Source of the DNA: a virus
Lineage: Duplodnaviria > Heunggongvirae > Uroviricota > Caudoviricetes
Direction: 5' to 3' (one strand)
IMG/VR virus record: IMGVR_UViG_641736163_000010
DNA: 39,990 nucleotides
Shown here piece after piece: positions 1,920 to 26,671 of the stretch. The position numbers and the translations under genes were made by a program. The notes under the pieces were generated by a model that made no database searches, was not told the DNA's origin, and saw only the letters and a program-made list of their open reading frames with translations. The first letter of the stretch is position 1, and each line of letters starts with the position of its first letter.

Positions 1920-4900
1920 TATGCAAGCCTCACAATATAGTTAAATGCGATGTTTTTGACGGTGTTTTCCGCGTTACCCGCAGCGTTAACGGTGATGGTG
2001 TGTCCATGTGAACCAATCGCAACGGAGTGCGTATGCGCACCAATACCTACAGTATGTGCATGTGCGCCAGAACTTGCTGCAGTACCAGACAGCGAGTGGG
2101 TATGAGCACCTGCTGACTGTGTCTGAATACGTTGATAATACGATCTATAGGAAGAAGTCCCCGGGCTTACTTGATACTGTGAATTCTGGACATAAGTGAA
2201 CCCACCGCCATCATAAAATGCTAACGCAGAACCGCCGCCTCCTGGCCAACGAATACCATTACCATGAGTATGAACACCGGCAGACCCCGTAGAGCCACTC
2301 AGACTGTGCGTATGCGCCCCGGTGTTATTCGTGGATTTAGTGCCGTAATCAAACGACGATGTGGTTTTCGTCCCCAAATCCGTACTGGATGCGCTGGCGC
2401 TGTGGGTATGCGATTTAATGCCGTCCTGTTCCTGAGACAATACGGCCCGACCACTGGCAGGTTTGCCCTTAATCGTCCAGCCACGCATATCAGGGATCAC
2501 GCCTGACGGATAAGCGGCTGCAAGTTTCGGGTAGGCAGATTTGTTAAAAGTCTGCCCCTGCATCAGGGCATAACCAGACGGAACGGTATCTGATGGCCAC
2601 GGGATTGGTGCGCCAACTGGGTAGCTTTCTGGTGGAAGATTTTTCGAGGTATAAACTTCTGCCCAGTCTTCCTCAAAACCATAACCGTCTCTTGAAGAAC
2701 GGTAGAACAGACCACGATTTCTGTAATGCGCCTTCATCTGCAGGGTCCGGCAACTTCCGACTCCGGTATAGAAGTTAACCAGAATATAGCTGTCGCCAGA
2801 GCGGGTGACATTGTAAGCGCCTGATTCGGCATTCCAGGGAACGGCTCCATCCGAATCCGCATAAGCCCCCGTCGAACGTCGGGCAAATGCACCAATATTT
2901 TCCGACGTGAGGTTAATATCCGCCGAGCCATCAAACTTAACACCGTTAATTTTTGGGGCTGCCGCAAGTTTCGTCGCGGTATCGGCGTTCCCCTTCAGTG
3001 CCCCGGTGATCCCATCAGTAACAGACAACGGACCTGAAATAGTCCCTCCAGTCGTTGGCAGCGCTCCAATATCTGATGGTGTAGGTTTCTGATGTGAGCT
3101 ATACATCGTATAAACAACACCACCGGTAACGCTGGAAGGCTTACTCGCTGAATATGTTGGCGAGGTATAAATAGAAACTGACGCATTTGTAGTACAATCC
3201 CAATGGATATTTACACTCGTCGCATAATTGCCAATCTCAACGTAAATATCATATGTATCGCCGGATGTGTTGATCCAGGCGAAATTCGTTAATCCGACGG
3301 CTGTACGCTTCCACAAAGCTCCGGTAATCCCTTTGGGCTTTCCATTGCCTGCTCGTAGAACCAGTTCTGAAATGCCTGCCTGCTGTGGGGAGCCGACGTT
3401 GTAACCAGCGCCACCAATCAATGTGATGTAAACGATGGAACTCGCTTGTGGCATGGTAACCGTTGCCAGTTTGAACCACCCTGCCCCGCCAGAGAAAGAG
3501 ATCGTTACTGAATTTAAAGTGCCAATATCTTTCGGTGTTAATGTTATATCCGCAGTCAGTGCTTTCCCGTTAACTTTTCGGTTAGATGGTACCCTGCCAT
3601 TCGCATTGTCATTCGCTGCTTTAACTGCCTTCGGTGTCGCGGCAAGCGTTTCAGATGTGCTGTTGGTCGCACTGCTGAGCTGTACTATCCCCTTTTTCGT
3701 CGTACTTGCATCCTCAAGCGCCACGGCGGATGCAATATCCTCTGCCCGTTTTGCCGCTGTCTCGGCGCGCGTTGCCGCGGATTCCGCCGTACTTTTGCTC
3801 TGTGCTGCCGCCGTCGCACTGCCAGCTGCCTCTGTCGCCTTCGTGGATGCTGTCGTGGCGCTGCCCTTCGCTGCTGACGCCTGTCTGGTCGCCTCATCTT
3901 TTGAAGCTGACGCCGATGATGCCGATGACGCCGCCGAACTGGCGGACGATGCGGCAGCCGTTTTTGAGGATTCTGCGCTGGTTTCCGACGCTTTCGCGTT
4001 CGTCTCGGATGTCTTCGCTGCGGAAGCAGACCTTGCTGCTGCACTGGCCTGTTCAGTGGCTTTGCCAGCCTTCGTTGTGGCTGTTGAAGCGGATGATGCG
4101 GCGCTTTCTGCCGATTTTCCGGCGGCGGTGGCACTGGCTGAGGCCTGCCCGGCACTTGTTGACGCGGCACTGGCAGATGATGCAGCCGCTGTTTTTGAGC
4201 CTGCCGCAGCTGAGGCACTCTGTCCCGCTGCCGTTTCAGAAGACCTGGCGTTCGTCTCGGACGTCTTTGCCGCCTTCGCGGAATTTCCTGCCGCCGTTGC
4301 CGAGGAAGCTGCACTACTGGCACTTGATGATGCATTCGTTTCTGAAGATTTCGCTGCCTCTTTTGAGGCCGCCGCACCCCGTGCCGAGGTGGCAGCTTCT
4401 GACGCCTTCGTGGTCGCTGTGGATGCAGAAGTGGCTGCCGATTTTTGTGATGCTGCGGCATTCGTTTCTGACGTTTTCGCGGCACTGGCGCTGGTAGCTG
4501 CCGCGCTTTTTGATGACTCTGCAGCAGCAGCACTTTTTGCTGCTTCACGGGCCTTTGTCGATGCCGTTCCTGCGCTGGAAGACGCTGACTGAGCCGACGA
4601 CGCGGCCTGTCCGGCTGACGTGCTGGCGGCACGTGCTGAGGCTGCAGCATCGGTTGCATGAGTTACCGCCTCGCTGGCTGATGCACTGGCATCGCTGGCT
4701 GATTTTTTCGCGGCTGCCGTATTCTGTGCAACCGCGGAGGCGTTACGTGACACTTCTTCCACCATCTGCTCAAAGCGGCGCAGTGCCTCCGGTCGGACAT
4801 CATCCTCCGTCATGGCACCGAGAAAATCATTCAGCGTACCTGGTCTGGAACCTTCATAGACGGTAATGGTCCCGGCATGTGAAGGCGGAAAACCTTCAAC

Positions 4901-18001: not shown

Positions 18002-19030
18002 TTATTTCACCTGTACCACCACAAACTCATCCGGATCCGGCAGCACCATCAGCGGAGCGGACTGCGTCATGGTGAATTCACAGGACGGATCGCCCACGGT
18101 CAGCCAGTGTTTCGGGTAACGGGAAGAAGCCACCACTCCTTCAGACAACGCCTGTGCATCCTTAATGGCACCATAGCAACGAATGCCCTCTGCTGCCGTA
18201 TTCCCCAGCACCAGCATGCCCTCCGGCAGATAACGTTTTTCGGTACCGTCCTCTGCCACATAAGACGTTTTCGCCACCACAATGGCCAGATCGCCGTAAT
18301 ACCCCTTGAAGGACACCACTGCGCCCAGATCTTTCACTGCCGTTTCGAGTTGTGAATTTGAGCCGCGACGGGTATCCAGTTTTTCGCGGAACAGCTTAAA
18401 GCCATTCAGCAGACGCCAGACCGTACCGTCCATAATGGCGATATTCACAAGGCCGCTGGCCTGATCGCAGTAGAGGTCAATATCATGCGTCGGATCAAAC
18501 GTATCACGGTCCTGCTCAGACCATTTTTTACCGTCGGCCTGCTCAATGTTATTTCCTTCAGAGCGTCCGAAATCCACCTCGACCGTGTCAAACTGTTCCC
18601 CTTCCATGGTGTATTTGCCATACAGCACGGCATTCACCGCCTGCATTTCTTCCACCTGGACAATAGCGTGCTCTTCCTGTTTGAGGTTATCGGTAATGAT
18701 ACGCAGACGACGGTAGGCCGGGTCGTTCAGCTGAGCCGGATCTTCACCGGGAAGGCGCTCAACCGCCTGCTGGTAATTAAATTCGTGTTTCGGCTTGACG
18801 TAGCCCGGACGCAACACGCGGGTTTCACCACCACGATGGCGCAGCACTTTTCCTTCAACGATCGGGGAGACATAGGCCGCCACCGGCGTTTTTCCGGTAA
18901 TTTTGTCCAGCATCACCTCTTCGGTGTGGAAATTCACCGTACGGCGGAAAAACAGCTCCAGAAATAGCGCACGGAATTTAACTTTTTGTTCGGTATAACC
19001 GAGTAACTGGCGGGTCGTAAACAATCCCAT
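18002..19030 (-). CDS. E: Major capsid protein E
   Basis: 342 aa; ...GYVKPKHE...DPAYRRLRII...QVEEMQAVNAVLYGKYTMEGE...KLDTRRGSNSQLETAVKDLG...MTQSAPLMVLPDPDEFVVVQ matches lambda gpE. Confidence 0.96.
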   Translation of the reverse strand: MGLFTTRQLLGYTEQKVKFRALFLELFFRRTVNFHTEEVMLDKITGKTPVAAYVSPIVEGKVLRHRGGETRVLRPGYVKPKHEFNYQQAVERLPGEDPAQLNDPAYRRLRIITDNLKQEEHAIVQVEEMQAVNAVLYGKYTMEGEQFDTVEVDFGRSEGNNIEQADGKKWSEQDRDTFDPTHDIDLYCDQASGLVNIAIMDGTVWRLLNGFKLFREKLDTRRGSNSQLETAVKDLGAVVSFKGYYGDLAIVVAKTSYVAEDGTEKRYLPEGMLVLGNTAAEGIRCYGAIKDAQALSEGVVASSRYPKHWLTVGDPSCEFTMTQSAPLMVLPDPDEFVVVQVK

Positions 19031-19087: not shown

Positions 19088-19435
19088 TTACGGCAGAGCC
19101 GCGTGACTCAGGGCTGTGCCGGCAAAGGCATTTGCCTTTTTGTGTTCATCCACACTGTCAGGCCAGCGGATTGCCTCCGTCGCAAAGGTCCCCGACTTGT
19201 AATAGGTCAGCACCGTCTCTGTGCCTTCAAGCGGCAGTACCAGTATGCCAACCGCACTACCGGCTTTCTGTCCATCCCAGACCACCAGTTTCCCGGTGAC
19301 TTCATCCAGCATCAGGGGCGTCAGAGCCGGTGTTGCAGAAGAAATCCCGCTGCTGCCTGTGGCGGTATGAGCCGGATCATTACCGGCAAAAATACGTACT
19401 TCCGCACGCTGTTCAGTGATGGTTTTCGTCACCAT
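19088..19435 (-). CDS. D: Head decoration protein D
   Basis: 115 aa; ...GNDPAHTATGSSGISSATPALTPLMLDEVTGKLVVWDGQKAGSAVGILV...YKSGTF...AFAGTA matches lambda gpD. Confidence 0.93.
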   Translation of the reverse strand: MVTKTITEQRAEVRIFAGNDPAHTATGSSGISSATPALTPLMLDEVTGKLVVWDGQKAGSAVGILVLPLEGTETVLTYYKSGTFATEAIRWPDSVDEHKKANAFAGTALSHAALP

Positions 19436-19471: not shown

Positions 19472-20074
19472 TCATGGCATGGCCATGAGCATTTTCACGT
19501 CCGCATCACCGTCTGCTGACGTCTGTGACACGCCACCCCGCACCGCTGCCGGTGAATGATTCGCCATGAAATGTTCAAACAGGGCGGTTGTGGATGCAGA
19601 GACCGGTTCGGCCTTACCTGATCCCGCAGCCAGCACAGCCCGGGCGTTCTCCACGGTCATTCCCGGGCAGGCCGCCAGTTTTTCAGCCTGCGCTTCTGCC
19701 CCTTTTGCCTCATCCAGGGCCATGATCTGATCACGAAGTGAGGGCCCGGCATTCGCCTGCGGTGAGGCAGCCAGGATCGGGCGGGCTTTTTCCACCGTCA
19801 TCTCCGGCATCGCCGCCAGCGTTGCCGCCAGTTGTTCACGACCGTTCGCTTCTTCACACGCCATAATGCGATCGGCTTCACTCTGCGCGGATGCCACCGG
19901 CTGCTGTGGTGCCGCCGCGGCCAGAATCGCCCGGGCCTGTTCAATGCTCATGCCCTGTTGTCCTGCCAGCATCGTGGCAAGCTGTTCACGTCCTTTCGCT
20001 TCCTGACACGTCAGGATCCCTATCACTCGCTGGTTCTCCTGCGCGGCAGCTTCCGTTGCAGTTAATTGCGGCAT
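19472..20074 (-). CDS. nu3: Scaffold protein Nu3-like (in-frame internal start within C)
   Basis: Internal ATG (MPQLTATEAAAQ...) preceded by AGGAGG; C-terminal region carries three tandem ~35-aa repeats of the lambda Nu3 motif (ILTCQEAKGREQLATMLAG... / IMACEEANGREQLAATLAA... / IMALDEAKGAEAQAEKLAA...). Confidence 0.7.
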   Translation of the reverse strand: MPQLTATEAAAQENQRVIGILTCQEAKGREQLATMLAGQQGMSIEQARAILAAAAPQQPVASAQSEADRIMACEEANGREQLAATLAAMPEMTVEKARPILAASPQANAGPSLRDQIMALDEAKGAEAQAEKLAACPGMTVENARAVLAAGSGKAEPVSASTTALFEHFMANHSPAAVRGGVSQTSADGDADVKMLMAMP

Positions 20075-20977
20075 AGTGCCTCCTGTATCATGAGTGTTCA
20101 GCGCCGCAGCCATCACGCTGATGGCATCCGACGCATTGATTAATTCATCCGCCAGTCCGGCCTTAATAGCGGACTGACCTTCAAAAACGGCAGCCTCTGT
20201 CCCCGTGACAGCTTCCACAGACAGCCCCGTATACATCGCCACTTTTTCGGCAAACATCCGGTGCGCCGCATCAACCCGCTGCTGCATGTCCTGACGCACC
20301 TCTGCCGGTAAGGCTTCAAACTGATTGCCATCCACCTTGTGCGCCCCGGCATAAATCAGCGTGATATCCACCCCGGCCTGCGCCAGATGACCGGCATAGC
20401 TGACATGGCTCATCATCACGCCAATGGAGCCGATACGGGATGTCTGGGTAACCAGCCGTCGGGAGCAGGCCGACGCCAGCAGCATGGCTGCAGAACAGGC
20501 CGTGTCATTGCACAGTGCCCAGACCGGCTTCTGCTGACGGAGGCGGTAAATCATGTCAGCGCAGTCAAACGCGCCGGCGGCCTGCCCGCCCGGACTGTCA
20601 ATGTCCAGCAGTACGCCCCGCACCTGGCTATCTGCCATTGCCTGCTGAAGACAGGCGACAATGCCGTCATAGCCTGTCATTCCGGAAAATGGCCGCATAC
20701 CGCCCAGCCGGTGCACCAGCGTGCCGGTCACCGGCAGTACAGCAATACCGTTCACCACCCGGTAAACACGGGCCGGTCGTTTACCTCCGGCCATGTACTC
20801 GTCCGTTTCAGCCAGCATTCCGGGAGCATCAAGCTGTACCTGTTGTTGTGGTACCGAAAGACTTGCTGCCCCCATCTCGCGCCCGAGCGCGCAAAAGAAA
20901 ACCCGCGCATAGGCGGGCTCCAGAAGCAGCGGTTCATTGAATGCTGCGGCAATAATGTGTGAAAGATTACGTCTCAC
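19472..20977 (-). CDS. C: Capsid assembly protease C (S49/ClpP-like) with C-terminal scaffold region
   Basis: 501 aa; ...NGIAVLPVTGTLV...SGMTGYDGIV...DIDSPGG...GAFDCADMIYRLRQQKPVWAL...RRLVTQTSRIGSIGVMM... collinear with lambda gpC; apparent GTG start overlapping the B stop. Confidence 0.92.
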   Translation of the reverse strand: MRRNLSHIIAAAFNEPLLLEPAYARVFFCALGREMGAASLSVPQQQVQLDAPGMLAETDEYMAGGKRPARVYRVVNGIAVLPVTGTLVHRLGGMRPFSGMTGYDGIVACLQQAMADSQVRGVLLDIDSPGGQAAGAFDCADMIYRLRQQKPVWALCNDTACSAAMLLASACSRRLVTQTSRIGSIGVMMSHVSYAGHLAQAGVDITLIYAGAHKVDGNQFEALPAEVRQDMQQRVDAAHRMFAEKVAMYTGLSVEAVTGTEAAVFEGQSAIKAGLADELINASDAISVMAAALNTHDTGGTMPQLTATEAAAQENQRVIGILTCQEAKGREQLATMLAGQQGMSIEQARAILAAAAPQQPVASAQSEADRIMACEEANGREQLAATLAAMPEMTVEKARPILAASPQANAGPSLRDQIMALDEAKGAEAQAEKLAACPGMTVENARAVLAAGSGKAEPVSASTTALFEHFMANHSPAAVRGGVSQTSADGDADVKMLMAMP

Positions 20978-22559
20978 GTGGTGTTGTCTCCTCTTCCGGC
21001 CTGCGACTCTCCGCTATCTGCTGCTGATACGCCTGCGCTATCCACACCGGACGTGAGAATCCGGCTTTTTCCCGCTCTGCAGATTCCCTGACCTGCTGGC
21101 GGAAAATGTCCTGATAATCCTCGCCCATCAGCGCCAGCTCTTTCTCATACGTGCTCAGTCCGGCCTCAATGCGCATCACTGATTCCTGAACCTCCTTGAG
21201 CCCGTCAATGGCCATTCTTCCGGCTCCAATCCACTCAGCCCGTGACCAGGCTGATCGCGCCTGATAAAAATCAAAACGTGCCCGTGGCGGACGAATAATC
21301 CCCCGAAGAAGTGCCTCTTCCAGCCAGCAGGAAAACATCTGCGTGGCCAGCCGGGACGCAATAAATTTTCGCCGCCCCATAAAATAGCGCCACGACTCAT
21401 TGGCGGATGCGCGGGCACTTGAATAACTGACCTTCGAGTAATCACGGGACAACTGTTCGTAGGAAACGCCAAGACCGGCGGCGATATACCGCAGCAGCGC
21501 CTGTTCAAGCGCCGAAAATCCATTGTCTGAATCCTGCGCGGTCTGAAGTTTCAGATCATCACCGGGGAAAAGGTGCGGAATTTTGACACCGCCCAGCGTC
21601 ACGCTATTCGTGTCATACCAGGTGGAGAACTTATCCAGAATATTAATAAGCGGATTATCCTTCTGCCCCTGCGGCGCACCGGCGATATATTCAAAGGCCT
21701 TTTCGGTATCAAGTTCACTTTCAATCGTCGCTGCATACATCGCCTTCACTATGGCCGACTGAAGCTGTGTTGCCTGCAGGGAATCGAGCATCTTCAGCCG
21801 TTCCATGACGCTGTAAAACTGATTAGCCCCACGGGTCTGCCCGTCCTCCACCGGCTCGAAAATATGCAGCATGGCCGGACGCCCGGTGGGAAGTTCACGC
21901 GGGATCCGTTCCCATCGTCCACTACCAGAGAACGGAAAATCGTCCTCACAAATATGGTACGCGACGGCACGGCCATATCGATCGACCTCCACACCGGCCC
22001 GCAGAAAACGGTTCCCCATACCGTGTCCAGGCGTGTCCACCCGTTTCGGACTCACGGCTTTAAAACGCGTACGGAATAACTGCGTGGTTTCCGTATCCCA
22101 GACCGGCTGCACAAAGATTTCGCCGTTAAACGCATGAACGCCCACACCTTCACGGATAAATTCCGTGAACGTGCGTTTTCCTTCCACGTCGATCTCGCCA
22201 AACATCCCTTCGGCGTATTCCGACCAGGCCGCCTCCACCTCATCGACAAAGCTTTTTGCTGCGGTCTCCCGCATCCCCAGCCAGCGCCAGTTCGGACGGT
22301 AGCTGATCAGAAACATATGCCCGACAATGTGATCCTTATGCAGAGCCACCGCATTAGCCGCTATTCCGTTATTGCGCACCAGATCATCTGCCCGGGCATT
22401 CCCCAGACGCAACGCGGGTAGCAGGGCCGCATCGGCACTCTGCGCCGGTGGCAACCACTCAGCCATTTGCCCGCCAAATCCTGCACCGCCCCCGTTGTAG
22501 CTGAGACTCTCACGAAGCGGAACGCCGTTCACATCAATCAGGACAGGCGTTCGTTTCAT
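20967..22559 (-). CDS. B: Portal protein B
   Basis: 530 aa; collinear with lambda gpB; position between W and C. Confidence 0.95.
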   Translation of the reverse strand: MKRTPVLIDVNGVPLRESLSYNGGGAGFGGQMAEWLPPAQSADAALLPALRLGNARADDLVRNNGIAANAVALHKDHIVGHMFLISYRPNWRWLGMRETAAKSFVDEVEAAWSEYAEGMFGEIDVEGKRTFTEFIREGVGVHAFNGEIFVQPVWDTETTQLFRTRFKAVSPKRVDTPGHGMGNRFLRAGVEVDRYGRAVAYHICEDDFPFSGSGRWERIPRELPTGRPAMLHIFEPVEDGQTRGANQFYSVMERLKMLDSLQATQLQSAIVKAMYAATIESELDTEKAFEYIAGAPQGQKDNPLINILDKFSTWYDTNSVTLGGVKIPHLFPGDDLKLQTAQDSDNGFSALEQALLRYIAAGLGVSYEQLSRDYSKVSYSSARASANESWRYFMGRRKFIASRLATQMFSCWLEEALLRGIIRPPRARFDFYQARSAWSRAEWIGAGRMAIDGLKEVQESVMRIEAGLSTYEKELALMGEDYQDIFRQQVRESAEREKAGFSRPVWIAQAYQQQIAESRRPEEETTPRET

Positions 22560-24644: not shown

Positions 24645-25163
24645 TTATTCAGTTGTTGCTCTGATATATTCATCCAGCAAATCCGGTAATTTATCCCCTG
24701 CCCGCGCACACTGATTTGCGCCCTTTGCAATAAGGGTTTTCAGATGGTCAATATGACGTGGCGTTAAATCCGGGAACTGTCGCTGCATGGATAACGGAAT
24801 GGAATCAAGCGTACTGGACAATGCCATCGCCAGTTTGCTGAGGGCGAAAACGCAGAAGTCTGAATCGATGAGCTTACCTTCGGTTACCTGATTTTTAAGT
24901 TTTTGAGCTACAGCCTGTTCTTCTGTCAGTTCAGCTCTGGCCCGAAGCAGCCTTTCCTCCAGTTCTCCCCCGTCATCAGGTGTTCTCTGATTGTGTTGTC
25001 GCCGCTCGCGATCTATCTCCAGTACAGTTTTAACGTCATATAAAACTTCCCTCCCCCGACGTTCAACAGGAGGAACGCCCCATTTATCAAATGCTTGAAC
25101 AGAGATACCGATGGAGGAGGCCATATCACTTTTATTCAATAAAAAAGGCCATCTCCTCTCCAT
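24645..25163 (-). CDS. nu1: Terminase small subunit Nu1
   Basis: 172 aa; ...EVLYD... and C-terminal half (...EEQAVAQKLKNQ...DSDFCVFALSKLAMALSSTLDSIPLSMQRQFPDLTPRHIDHLKTLIAKG...) align with lambda gpNu1; sits immediately downstream of cos; exact start uncertain (weak SD). Confidence 0.82.
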   Translation of the reverse strand: MERRWPFLLNKSDMASSIGISVQAFDKWGVPPVERRGREVLYDVKTVLEIDRERRQHNQRTPDDGGELEERLLRARAELTEEQAVAQKLKNQVTEGKLIDSDFCVFALSKLAMALSSTLDSIPLSMQRQFPDLTPRHIDHLKTLIAKGANQCARAGDKLPDLLDEYIRATTE

Positions 25164-25603: not shown

Positions 25604-26671
25604 ATGAGTCAACATCAATATTATCCACAGCTGAAATGGAAGCCTGCTGAATATGAATCTCTGATGCTTTTAGATCAAACTACGCTCTCTGGTTTTACTC
25701 CGATCATTACCATTCCAGACATAGACTGGGATTATGAAAACGAATGCTACAAGAAGAGTTTGAGTTCTTACTTATCTGACTTCGGTATTAACCTTGCGGC
25801 ATCCTGGAAAGCCAATCGTCCTGTTTTGCTGGATGTTAAATATTTAGATAAACATGGTTCGAGCCGCCATCATCCTCTAGATATGTGTATCCAAGATGCT
25901 AGAGTAAATGGTAAGGAAATTATCCCTGTTGTTTCTCCCGCATATTCAACAAACTATATACATGCTGTTCAACGCAACTTAATCAATGGGCTCGCTATAT
26001 CTATCACCCCCCAGACATGGCACCAATTCACAAGTCTGGTTAACCACTTAAATATTCATCCTAGTTTAATTGATGTAATCATTGATTTTGGAGATATTCA
26101 AAACGCAACTGATAGTTTAAAACAACAAGCATTAAGCATGGTCAACACATTATCAGGCCAAGCTCCGTGGAGAAACTTGATTTTATCTTCAACCGCATAC
26201 CCGGCATCACAGGCAGGGATACCGCAACATCAAGTTCATCATATTCCGCGCCATGAATACGATCTTTGGATGTACGTAGTACAGAATTTTAGCAATGGAA
26301 GAACGCCAAGTTTTAGTGATTATCCCACCGCTAGCTCTACCATTACGAGCGTAGACCCACGCTTCATGTCTCAGTATGTCTCAGTGAGATATTCGAACGA
26401 TACCTCATGGATCTTTGTAAAAGGTACCGCAGTTAAAGGAAATGGATGGGGCCAAACTAAAAACTTATGTACTACCCTTGTTAGTTCGCCAGAGTATCAA
26501 GTCTTTGGCTCCAAATTTAGTTGGGGGGATGATTACATTTACCAAAGATCATTAGGCGCTAACAAATCTGGCGGCTCTAAAGAATGGCGTAAAGTTGCAC
26601 ATACGCACCATATTACGTTAGTCGTGAGACAGCTTTATTGGTTGGCGCAGACTCAGCCTGCCAAGCCTTAA
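25604..26671 (+). CDS. Hypothetical 355-aa protein of AT-rich moron cassette (possibly Beta-protein/sce7725-like; unverified)
   Basis: Long ORF with strong AAGGAG SD; AT-rich codon usage unlike flanking phage genes; opposite strand to the late operon; N-terminal YYPQLKWKPAEYESL; no catalytic motif I can name. Confidence 0.8.
   Translation: MSQHQYYPQLKWKPAEYESLMLLDQTTLSGFTPIITIPDIDWDYENECYKKSLSSYLSDFGINLAASWKANRPVLLDVKYLDKHGSSRHHPLDMCIQDARVNGKEIIPVVSPAYSTNYIHAVQRNLINGLAISITPQTWHQFTSLVNHLNIHPSLIDVIIDFGDIQNATDSLKQQALSMVNTLSGQAPWRNLILSSTAYPASQAGIPQHQVHHIPRHEYDLWMYVVQNFSNGRTPSFSDYPTASSTITSVDPRFMSQYVSVRYSNDTSWIFVKGTAVKGNGWGQTKNLCTTLVSSPEYQVFGSKFSWGDDYIYQRSLGANKSGGSKEWRKVAHTHHITLVVRQLYWLAQTQPAKP

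Follow-up and report, generated by a model that had tools for sequence, protein, structure and literature searches.

Three Nu3-type scaffold units in a lambdoid prophage, almost certainly the Tri boxes of phage 21

The protease/scaffold gene of the lambdoid prophage analysed here (in a 39,990-nt stretch of viral DNA, referred to below as the window) carries three tandem, diverged copies of a unit of ~40 residues, and these units, R1, R2 and R3, are with near certainty the Tri1, Tri and Tri3 boxes of phage 21. The gene aligns with phage 21 gene 5/6 over all 1506 nt, without a gap and with 96.1% nucleotide identity, and its protein aligns with phage 21 gp5, likewise without a gap, at 95.6% amino acid identity (22 substitutions). 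The 'Bacteriophage 21 head gene operon' record, M81255.1, lists three repeat_region features in gene 6, the 'Tri1 box', 'Tri box' and 'Tri3 box', each annotated 'function unknown; putative', and in the gapless alignment to that record they coincide with R1, R2 and R3. The triple repeat is already known, having been annotated in GenBank for decades, and that feature table constitutes the prior knowledge of it; the paper behind the record is presumably Smith & Feiss 1993 (Gene 126:1-7).

The sequence-only reading that drew attention to the repeat held that it would be ordinary if related phages uniformly had three copies; they do, and by that standard it is an ordinary feature of its group. Already known, and carried by about one complete E. 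coli genome in three, it has little weight as a discovery. What is gained is the recognition of the unit as the conserved core of Nu3-type scaffolds, single-copy almost everywhere else, of the triplication as ancient and shared with Gifsy-1, and of the shortened alleles in prophages. As a joint explanation we consider it probable that the gene specifies a phage 21-type protease/scaffold pair with three diverged Nu3 core modules, which would act as contact modules.

The protease/scaffold gene and its nested start

The gene lies among its neighbours as follows.

20967-22559: portal gene (Phage_portal_2, Pfam)
19472-20977, minus strand: gene 5 homologue, S49 prohead protease plus scaffold region, 501 aa (from the list of open reading frames)
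20080-20084, minus strand: Shine-Dalgarno sequence GGAGG before the internal ATG, seen in the sequence (read as ggaggcactATG)
19472-20074, minus strand: putative nested in-frame scaffold gene, homologue of phage 21 gene 6 and Nu3, 200 aa, MPQLTATE... (maps onto 'gene 6' of M81255.1 and 'scaffolding protein' of OL657228.1)
19088-19435: D-type decoration protein gene (HDPD, Pfam)
18002-19030: E-type major capsid protein gene (Phage_cap_E, Pfam)

The 501-aa ORF starts with GTG and overlaps the 3' end of the portal gene. Its aa 146-293 are a Peptidase_S49 domain (PF01343; E 4e-36, 124.6 bits against a Pfam cut-off of 24.9), SppA chains in the PDB match aa 77-289 (E 9e-18), the serine segment CSA...LLASA aligns with its counterpart in lambda gpC, and the PHROG family of head maturation proteases, phrog_53, matches from end to end (E 9e-227). 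The terminase genes lie upstream, and the order of the head genes is portal, protease/scaffold, decoration, major capsid. These domains, and the position between the portal and the decoration and capsid genes, mark the ORF as a lambdoid prophage's protease-scaffold gene of the C/Nu3 type. A Nu3-type scaffold region in a lambda C-type protease gene is what the sequence-only reading had proposed, and the S49 domain, the gene order and the conserved Nu3 core motif near the C-terminus (...EAxGRExxAxxLAxxPGMTVxxARxILAA...) all agree with it. The exact protein is found in public entries as 'Head-tail preconnector protein GP5' or S49 family peptidase, on 14 contigs that include Escherichia albertii; the copy in E. 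coli 14EC047 is 99.9% identical, and its prophage also has T3SS effector genes. Phage 21 gp5/gp6 share with the window the internal GGAGG-ATG, the coordinates of the units and the neighbours (portal, shp-type decoration protein and gp7-type capsid protein, the last 94% identical). The window gene is borne by a prophage whereas phage 21 is an isolated phage, and a handful of the 22 substitutions between the two lie inside units (RVMGIL to RVIGIL and AEQLAA to AEKLAA, for example).

The internal ATG at 20074 is M302 of the protease, and it is also the upper limit of the region to which attention had been drawn. Together with its GGAGG it spans 20084-20072 on the minus strand (GGAGGcactATG). Both phage 21 records (M81255.1 and OL657228.1) annotate a ribosome-binding site at the same place, and lambda has the equivalent start, AGGAGGgcgaATG, at the homologous position, aa 309 of gpC. 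On the evidence of this conserved sequence, a nested, in-frame scaffold product identical to the C-terminal part of the protease is putatively made.

The annotation of lambda nu3 itself calls for comment. In RefSeq/GenBank (NC_001416) it starts at aa 239 of gpC and encodes 201 aa; the window has GTT there, which is no start codon. In the extracted piece of the lambda genome, the annotated nu3 start is at 1133 and the Shine-Dalgarno-ATG at 1332-1345. Gene 6 of N15 (137 aa, 'assigned by similarity with lambda') starts at the downstream site, and the phage 434 record carries a note opening 'real Nu3 start ...'. In the light of the conserved downstream Shine-Dalgarno-ATG, the GTT of the window and the N15 and 434 records, the 201-aa lambda nu3 coding sequence looks like a legacy annotation. 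The 'CII binding site' features that OL657228.1 places in gene 6 (TTGYN6TTGY) also occur here, at 19822-19835 and 20056-20069 on the plus strand; we dismiss them, as the window has four copies of the pattern where chance alone would give 8.3.

Several other features of the window may be put on record. A 355-aa ORF on the opposite strand (25604-26671, plus) matches Beta_protein (PF14350, E 8e-56); it is flanked by the Nu1-like small terminase gene (24645-25163) on one side and the lysis region on the other, and looks like inserted cargo. A 623-aa ORF (29379-31250, minus) combines DUF1737, a SASA sialate-esterase domain and DUF6645, and resembles the 'DUF6645 domain-containing protein' of a related prophage; upstream of it in the late region, at 32779-32940 (minus), are genes for tRNA-Arg(tcg) and tRNA-Met(cat). 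At the left end, beyond the tail-fibre genes, a 222-aa ORF (612-1280, plus) has a class I methyltransferase domain.

The repeated unit, its predicted fold and its possible role

The scaffold part of the gene, read from the first unit to the C-terminus, is made up as follows.

19907-20029, minus strand: unit R1, aa 317-357, RVIGILTCQEAKGREQLATMLAGQQGMSIEQARAILAAAAP; 'Tri1 box' of phage 21 (maps to 19904-20007)
19880-19906, minus strand: linker 1, QQPVASAQS; low pLDDT, variable and with indels in relatives
19760-19879, minus strand: unit R2, aa 367-406, EADRIMACEEANGREQLAATLAAMPEMTVEKARPILAASP; 'Tri box' of phage 21 (maps to 19757-19867)
19739-19759, minus strand: linker 2, QANAGPS; low pLDDT
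19619-19738, minus strand: unit R3, aa 414-453, LRDQIMALDEAKGAEAQAEKLAACPGMTVENARAVLAAGS; 'Tri3 box' of phage 21 (maps to 19613-19726)
19553-19591, minus strand: conserved helix past the repeats, TTALFEHFMANHS, matching TALDRLMQGAP of lambda; a conservation peak and predicted helix (scaffold residues 160-172)
19475-19507, minus strand: C-terminal tail, DADVKMLMAMP, with the hydrophobic ...LMxxP end common to relatives; predicted helix at 189-197, low confidence

The three peptides quoted in the sequence-only reading as consecutive variants of one motif are found exactly, at aa 321-357, 371-406 and 418-453 (window 19907-20017, 19760-19867 and 19619-19726). The units, of ~40 aa, include four further N-terminal residues, and they start 50 and 47 aa apart. 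Aligned in register, they have 45-55% amino acid identity to each other and 15 invariant columns out of 41; the best ungapped 40-aa self-match of the scaffold part scores 97, well beyond what chance would give, where 1000 shuffles gave a mean of 25.9 (sd 5.8) and a maximum of 49. At the nucleotide level the units are 55-63% identical, with third codon positions at 35-42%, which is near saturation. Tandem Repeats Finder reports no array in the DNA of the unit region, and a search for repeated DNA yields only pairs of 13-19 nt at spacings of 153-156 nt. The repeat, having no DNA array and only these short pairs, is a feature of the protein; the statement that it is also visible as nucleotide repeats holds for the short pairs and goes no further.

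The sequence-only reading was right that lambda has a single copy: the motif IMGILNCEEAHGREEQARVLAETPGMTVKTARRILAA occurs once in gpC, at aa 362-398, in a unit that comprises aa 360-399, and a profile of the unit matches the lambda protein once (83 bits) and the window protein three times (75-79 bits each). Lambda gpC/gpNu3 has the same architecture and gene order and 53% overall identity, the units of the window being 51-56% identical to that of lambda, but the lambda unit comes after about 50 aa of unconserved, low-complexity Ser/Thr/Ala/Asp sequence, where phage 21 has its extra units. The major capsid protein of lambda, E, is 61% identical to that of the window.

The consensus of the module is R-[IV]-x-x-I-[LM]-x-x-x-E-A-K-G-R-E-x-L-A-x-x-L-A-x-x-P-G-M-[TS]-V-E-x-A-[RK]-x-I-L-A-A-A-P. 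In 51 single-copy relatives nothing downstream of the S49 domain comes near the unit (...Ri.gIL.CeEAKGREaLAr.LA.tPGMTVE.AKaiLAAAP...) in conservation; the linker upstream of the unit is unconserved, the tail is variable, and a second, weaker peak of conservation past the unit corresponds to TALxxxM ('taLdaaM'). AlphaFold2 with a 52-row alignment predicts, at moderate confidence (mean pLDDT 75, pTM 0.33), three short helices for each unit (in R2, scaffold residues 66-72, 80-88 and 94-103), with pLDDT of 85-91 in R2 and R3 and low values in linkers and tail; it gives no confident arrangement of the units relative to each other. A poor model from the single sequence (pLDDT 62.6) was excluded from the fold search. 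The predicted unit superposes on protein A domains, the GA module and UBA/CUE-like bundles (45-56 residues, 2.2-3.6 A), which is to be read as structural analogy only. No Nu3-type unit has a solved structure, and no similarity of structure or sequence was found between the unit and the solved C-terminal helix-turn-helix coat-binding domain of the P22/phi29 type.

In lambda, Nu3 and C are essential for head assembly and the scaffold is removed by the protease (PMC3224144; PMC10695390). Lambda Nu3 forms dimers or multimers; Nu3-Nu3, Nu3-C and Nu3-B interactions have been published, and a Nu3-E interaction by yeast two-hybrid (PMC3224144). Since no other folded element of the scaffold region is strongly conserved, the unit is the prime candidate to mediate one or more of these Nu3-type contacts. 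Each module would fold as a small three-helix unit, the three being strung like beads on Pro/Gln/Ala linkers. They would be present in two forms, in low amount as the C-terminal part of the protease gp5 and in high amount as the free scaffold gp6 initiated at the internal GGAGG-ATG. In the procapsid they would serve as contact elements of the scaffold, for self-association and/or for binding the major capsid protein, and for co-targeting the protease, and they would then be degraded by the S49 protease and leave before DNA packaging. Three modules would provide three contact points per scaffold chain where lambda has one. To this inferred multivalent contact mechanism we assign about an even chance; the module may bind to itself, to the protease, to the portal or to the capsid protein.

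Just past the last unit lie the conserved TALxxxM helix and the hydrophobic C-terminal end, and in several other scaffold systems, those of P22, P2 and 80alpha, it is the extreme C-terminal tail that binds the capsid protein. The module may, for that reason, do something else: it may serve mainly for self-association, or for docking and degradation by the protease, with the tail binding the capsid protein. The lambda dimers or multimers and the contact of Nu3 with gpC accord with that division of labour, but conservation is far lower in the tail than in the module. As to partners, the tail may just as well be what binds the capsid protein, with the modules mediating self-association; the alternative as a whole we regard as possible though somewhat unlikely.

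Spread and age of the triplication

The gene is fully covered at 93-96% identity in 19 phage-21-like records, namely the two independent phage 21 records (an older head-operon record and a later complete genome) and 17 others. When the scaffold part is used as tblastn query, all three units are found in 20 phage records, the phage-21-like ones and Salmonella Gifsy-1, and of the other 85 (lambda, 434, HK629/630, N15 and Stx1a-converting phages among them) all but two of those listed give a one-unit match only. The gene is present in 2032 of 5426 complete E. coli genomes. In 1812 of these, about one third of the complete genomes, the R2 segment occurs intact, at 2851 places in total.

The Gifsy-1 homologue of lambda gpC, STM2605 (498 aa), has three units in the same order, giving three profile matches, and is followed by decoration and capsid genes of the same type; the capsid protein is 87% identical to that of the window and the scaffold part 56%. 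R3 of Gifsy-1 keeps G-R-E, where R3 of the window has G-A-E.

A three-unit profile searched against 1.84 billion representative proteins gave 433 matches at E <= 1e-3; among the best 150 of these 433 family representatives, 134 have a single unit. In the 51 long single-copy proteins (more than 380 aa) the unit lies a median of 52 aa from the C-terminus; the examples shown are protease-scaffold proteins of the S49 type, about 410-530 aa in length. Three-unit representatives in the phage-21-like clade include P0121, P0122 (505 aa, 57% identical) and P0124 (50% identical); independently of these, a handful of remote stand-alone proteins (P0158, P0266, P0269) have two units. Judged by these matches, the unit is normally single-copy outside the phage 21/Gifsy-1 clade.

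Two side observations concern individual members of the family. P0216, a three-unit homologue with Ala to Val, Thr to Met/Ile and Pro to Leu/Phe changes throughout, gives the impression of having been translated from C-to-T converted (bisulfite-like) sequence rather than of being a real protein. In GCA_001908235.1 (LGHK01000125.1, 5001-5672 of the extracted locus), an integrase-bearing element encodes a stand-alone 223-aa protein with two Nu3-type units, followed by a 298-aa protein without family match and then a tape-measure-like gene, with no S49 protease adjacent; this may be the separate scaffold gene of a distant phage group.

When R1 of the window is compared with three-unit proteins whose overall identity to the window protein is 50-57%, it is 69-77% identical to their R1 and 41-59% identical to the paralogous units; it is the positional orthologue of unit 1 in the other three-unit lineages. 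Since R1 is closer to its orthologues than to its paralogues, the triplication predates the divergence of those lineages, and it is older than the split between the head module of phage 21 (E. coli) and that of Gifsy-1 (Salmonella). Third positions are saturated and yet residues are conserved, a combination that points to purifying selection acting on the units over a long time. On these comparisons three units are the ancient, fixed state of the phage 21/Gifsy-1 head-module lineage.

Unit number in prophages

The 120 closest database clusters include several shortened alleles, and no unit is reduced or lost as often as R2.

451/452 aa, 25 clusters: two units, with at least four types of R1/R2 junction at the protein level; some on complete chromosomes
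482 aa (473 aa in one cluster), 67 clusters: second half of R2 missing (...GREQLAA/APLADAG..., the stroke marking the junction); one exact sequence on at least 1000 contigs
472 aa, 1 cluster: first half of R2 missing; 53 contigs, Shigella flexneri
494-498 aa, several clusters: indels of 3-7 aa in R2 or linker 1

Three of the deletion junctions were read in DNA, and all lie in 5-8-nt matches common to two units; alignment places one R1/R2 hybrid junction at GAAGCGAA and the junction of the 57-nt deletion of the 482-aa allele at CTGGCGGC. Unit number in prophages, to judge from these junctions, changes by deletion at short matches between units. The 482-aa ('2.5'-copy) allele was counted with a junction-specific 39-nt query, neither half of which can seed an alignment alone, and is found in 56 complete genomes. 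(A 65-nt junction-spanning query had to be discarded: BLAST bridged its halves across intact genes, making its 554 genomes meaningless.) Two queries for two-unit junctions matched none of the complete genomes, which does not imply absence of these alleles, since a single SNP abolishes the 28-nt seed and there are at least four junction types. An intact R2 is evidently not maintained everywhere, the 482-aa allele being a case in point, and with that allele widespread and two-unit alleles in existence, full triple valency is not obviously required.

Evidence for more than three units is weak. The '4-unit' alleles of 551 aa come from two assemblies of one project (GCA_900537015.1, extracted locus 3001-4656, and GCA_900536945.1, 501-2156). 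Both have an N at nt 1323 and nt 1473 of the gene, 150 nt apart, at bases that distinguish R2 from R3; for this reason they are probably assembly loops, and they were rejected as evidence of expansion. In the 657-aa allele, seen in a single complete genome (CP007136.1, extracted locus 501-2474), a 468-nt tandem duplication with 460 identical nt begins where the protease domain ends and extends to where R3 begins; this allele may be genuine or an artefact. Two further proteins, P0085 (577 aa) and P0087 (721 aa), are of a different kind: past the end of R3 (...AVLAAGSG) the sequence is replaced by tail-fibre-like sequence, and they look like rearranged prophages in which the protease/scaffold gene is fused to tail genes. 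At the extreme C-terminus, other relatives end in ...DLLNTPV (lambda) and ...TLLMSIPG (Gifsy-1).

The shortened alleles bear on the suggestion that the units are a tolerant, Ala-rich helical spacer, for which the length or flexibility of the tether matters and unit number is nearly neutral. Such a spacer would explain why R2 is partly or wholly deleted in so many prophage alleles (482, 472 and 451/452 aa), the 3-4-aa indels of R2 in others, and the unconserved 50-aa stretch that lambda has in place of extra units; the capsid proteins encoded beside two-, three- and '4'-unit alleles are 94-96% identical to that of the window and give no sign of co-adaptation. It would not explain why, among the 433 representatives, conservation in the scaffold region peaks at the unit, with E-A-x-G-R-E, L-A, M and A-[RK]-x-x-L nearly invariant, or why paralogous units keep their conserved residues in the face of saturated synonymous sites. 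The isolated phages of the collection, moreover, have exactly one or exactly three intact units among the matches listed, and shortened alleles are seen in prophages only. A mere spacer is accordingly, in our judgement, decidedly unlikely.

The remaining alternative, that the three copies of the window are a recent recombinational expansion or an assembly artefact, has a vanishingly small chance of being right: tandem repeats are prone to both, and the two draft '4-copy' alleles with N at unit-distinguishing bases show that artefacts occur at this locus, but it is refuted by the divergence of the units in DNA, even at third positions, with no tandem array, and by the independent sequences (the gapless gene in both phage 21 records and 17 other phages, the three units of Gifsy-1 and the intact R2 of ~1,800 E. 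coli genomes). The worry voiced in the sequence-only reading about collapse or expansion in assembly is thereby removed; of its suggestion that the repeat reflects recombination, the part that survives concerns loss, in deletion alleles joined at microhomologies, and the part that does not is recent expansion, which the saturation of synonymous sites contradicts.

On the reading of the units as contact modules, their number may set the valency of the scaffold and hence the stoichiometry in which it is required, a tentative proposal that we think rather unlikely to hold. E. coli prophages nevertheless offer a natural allelic series of one, two, '2.5' and three units beside capsid genes that are 94-96% identical, and this series could serve to test the effect of scaffold valency on the nucleation and fidelity of T=7 procapsids.
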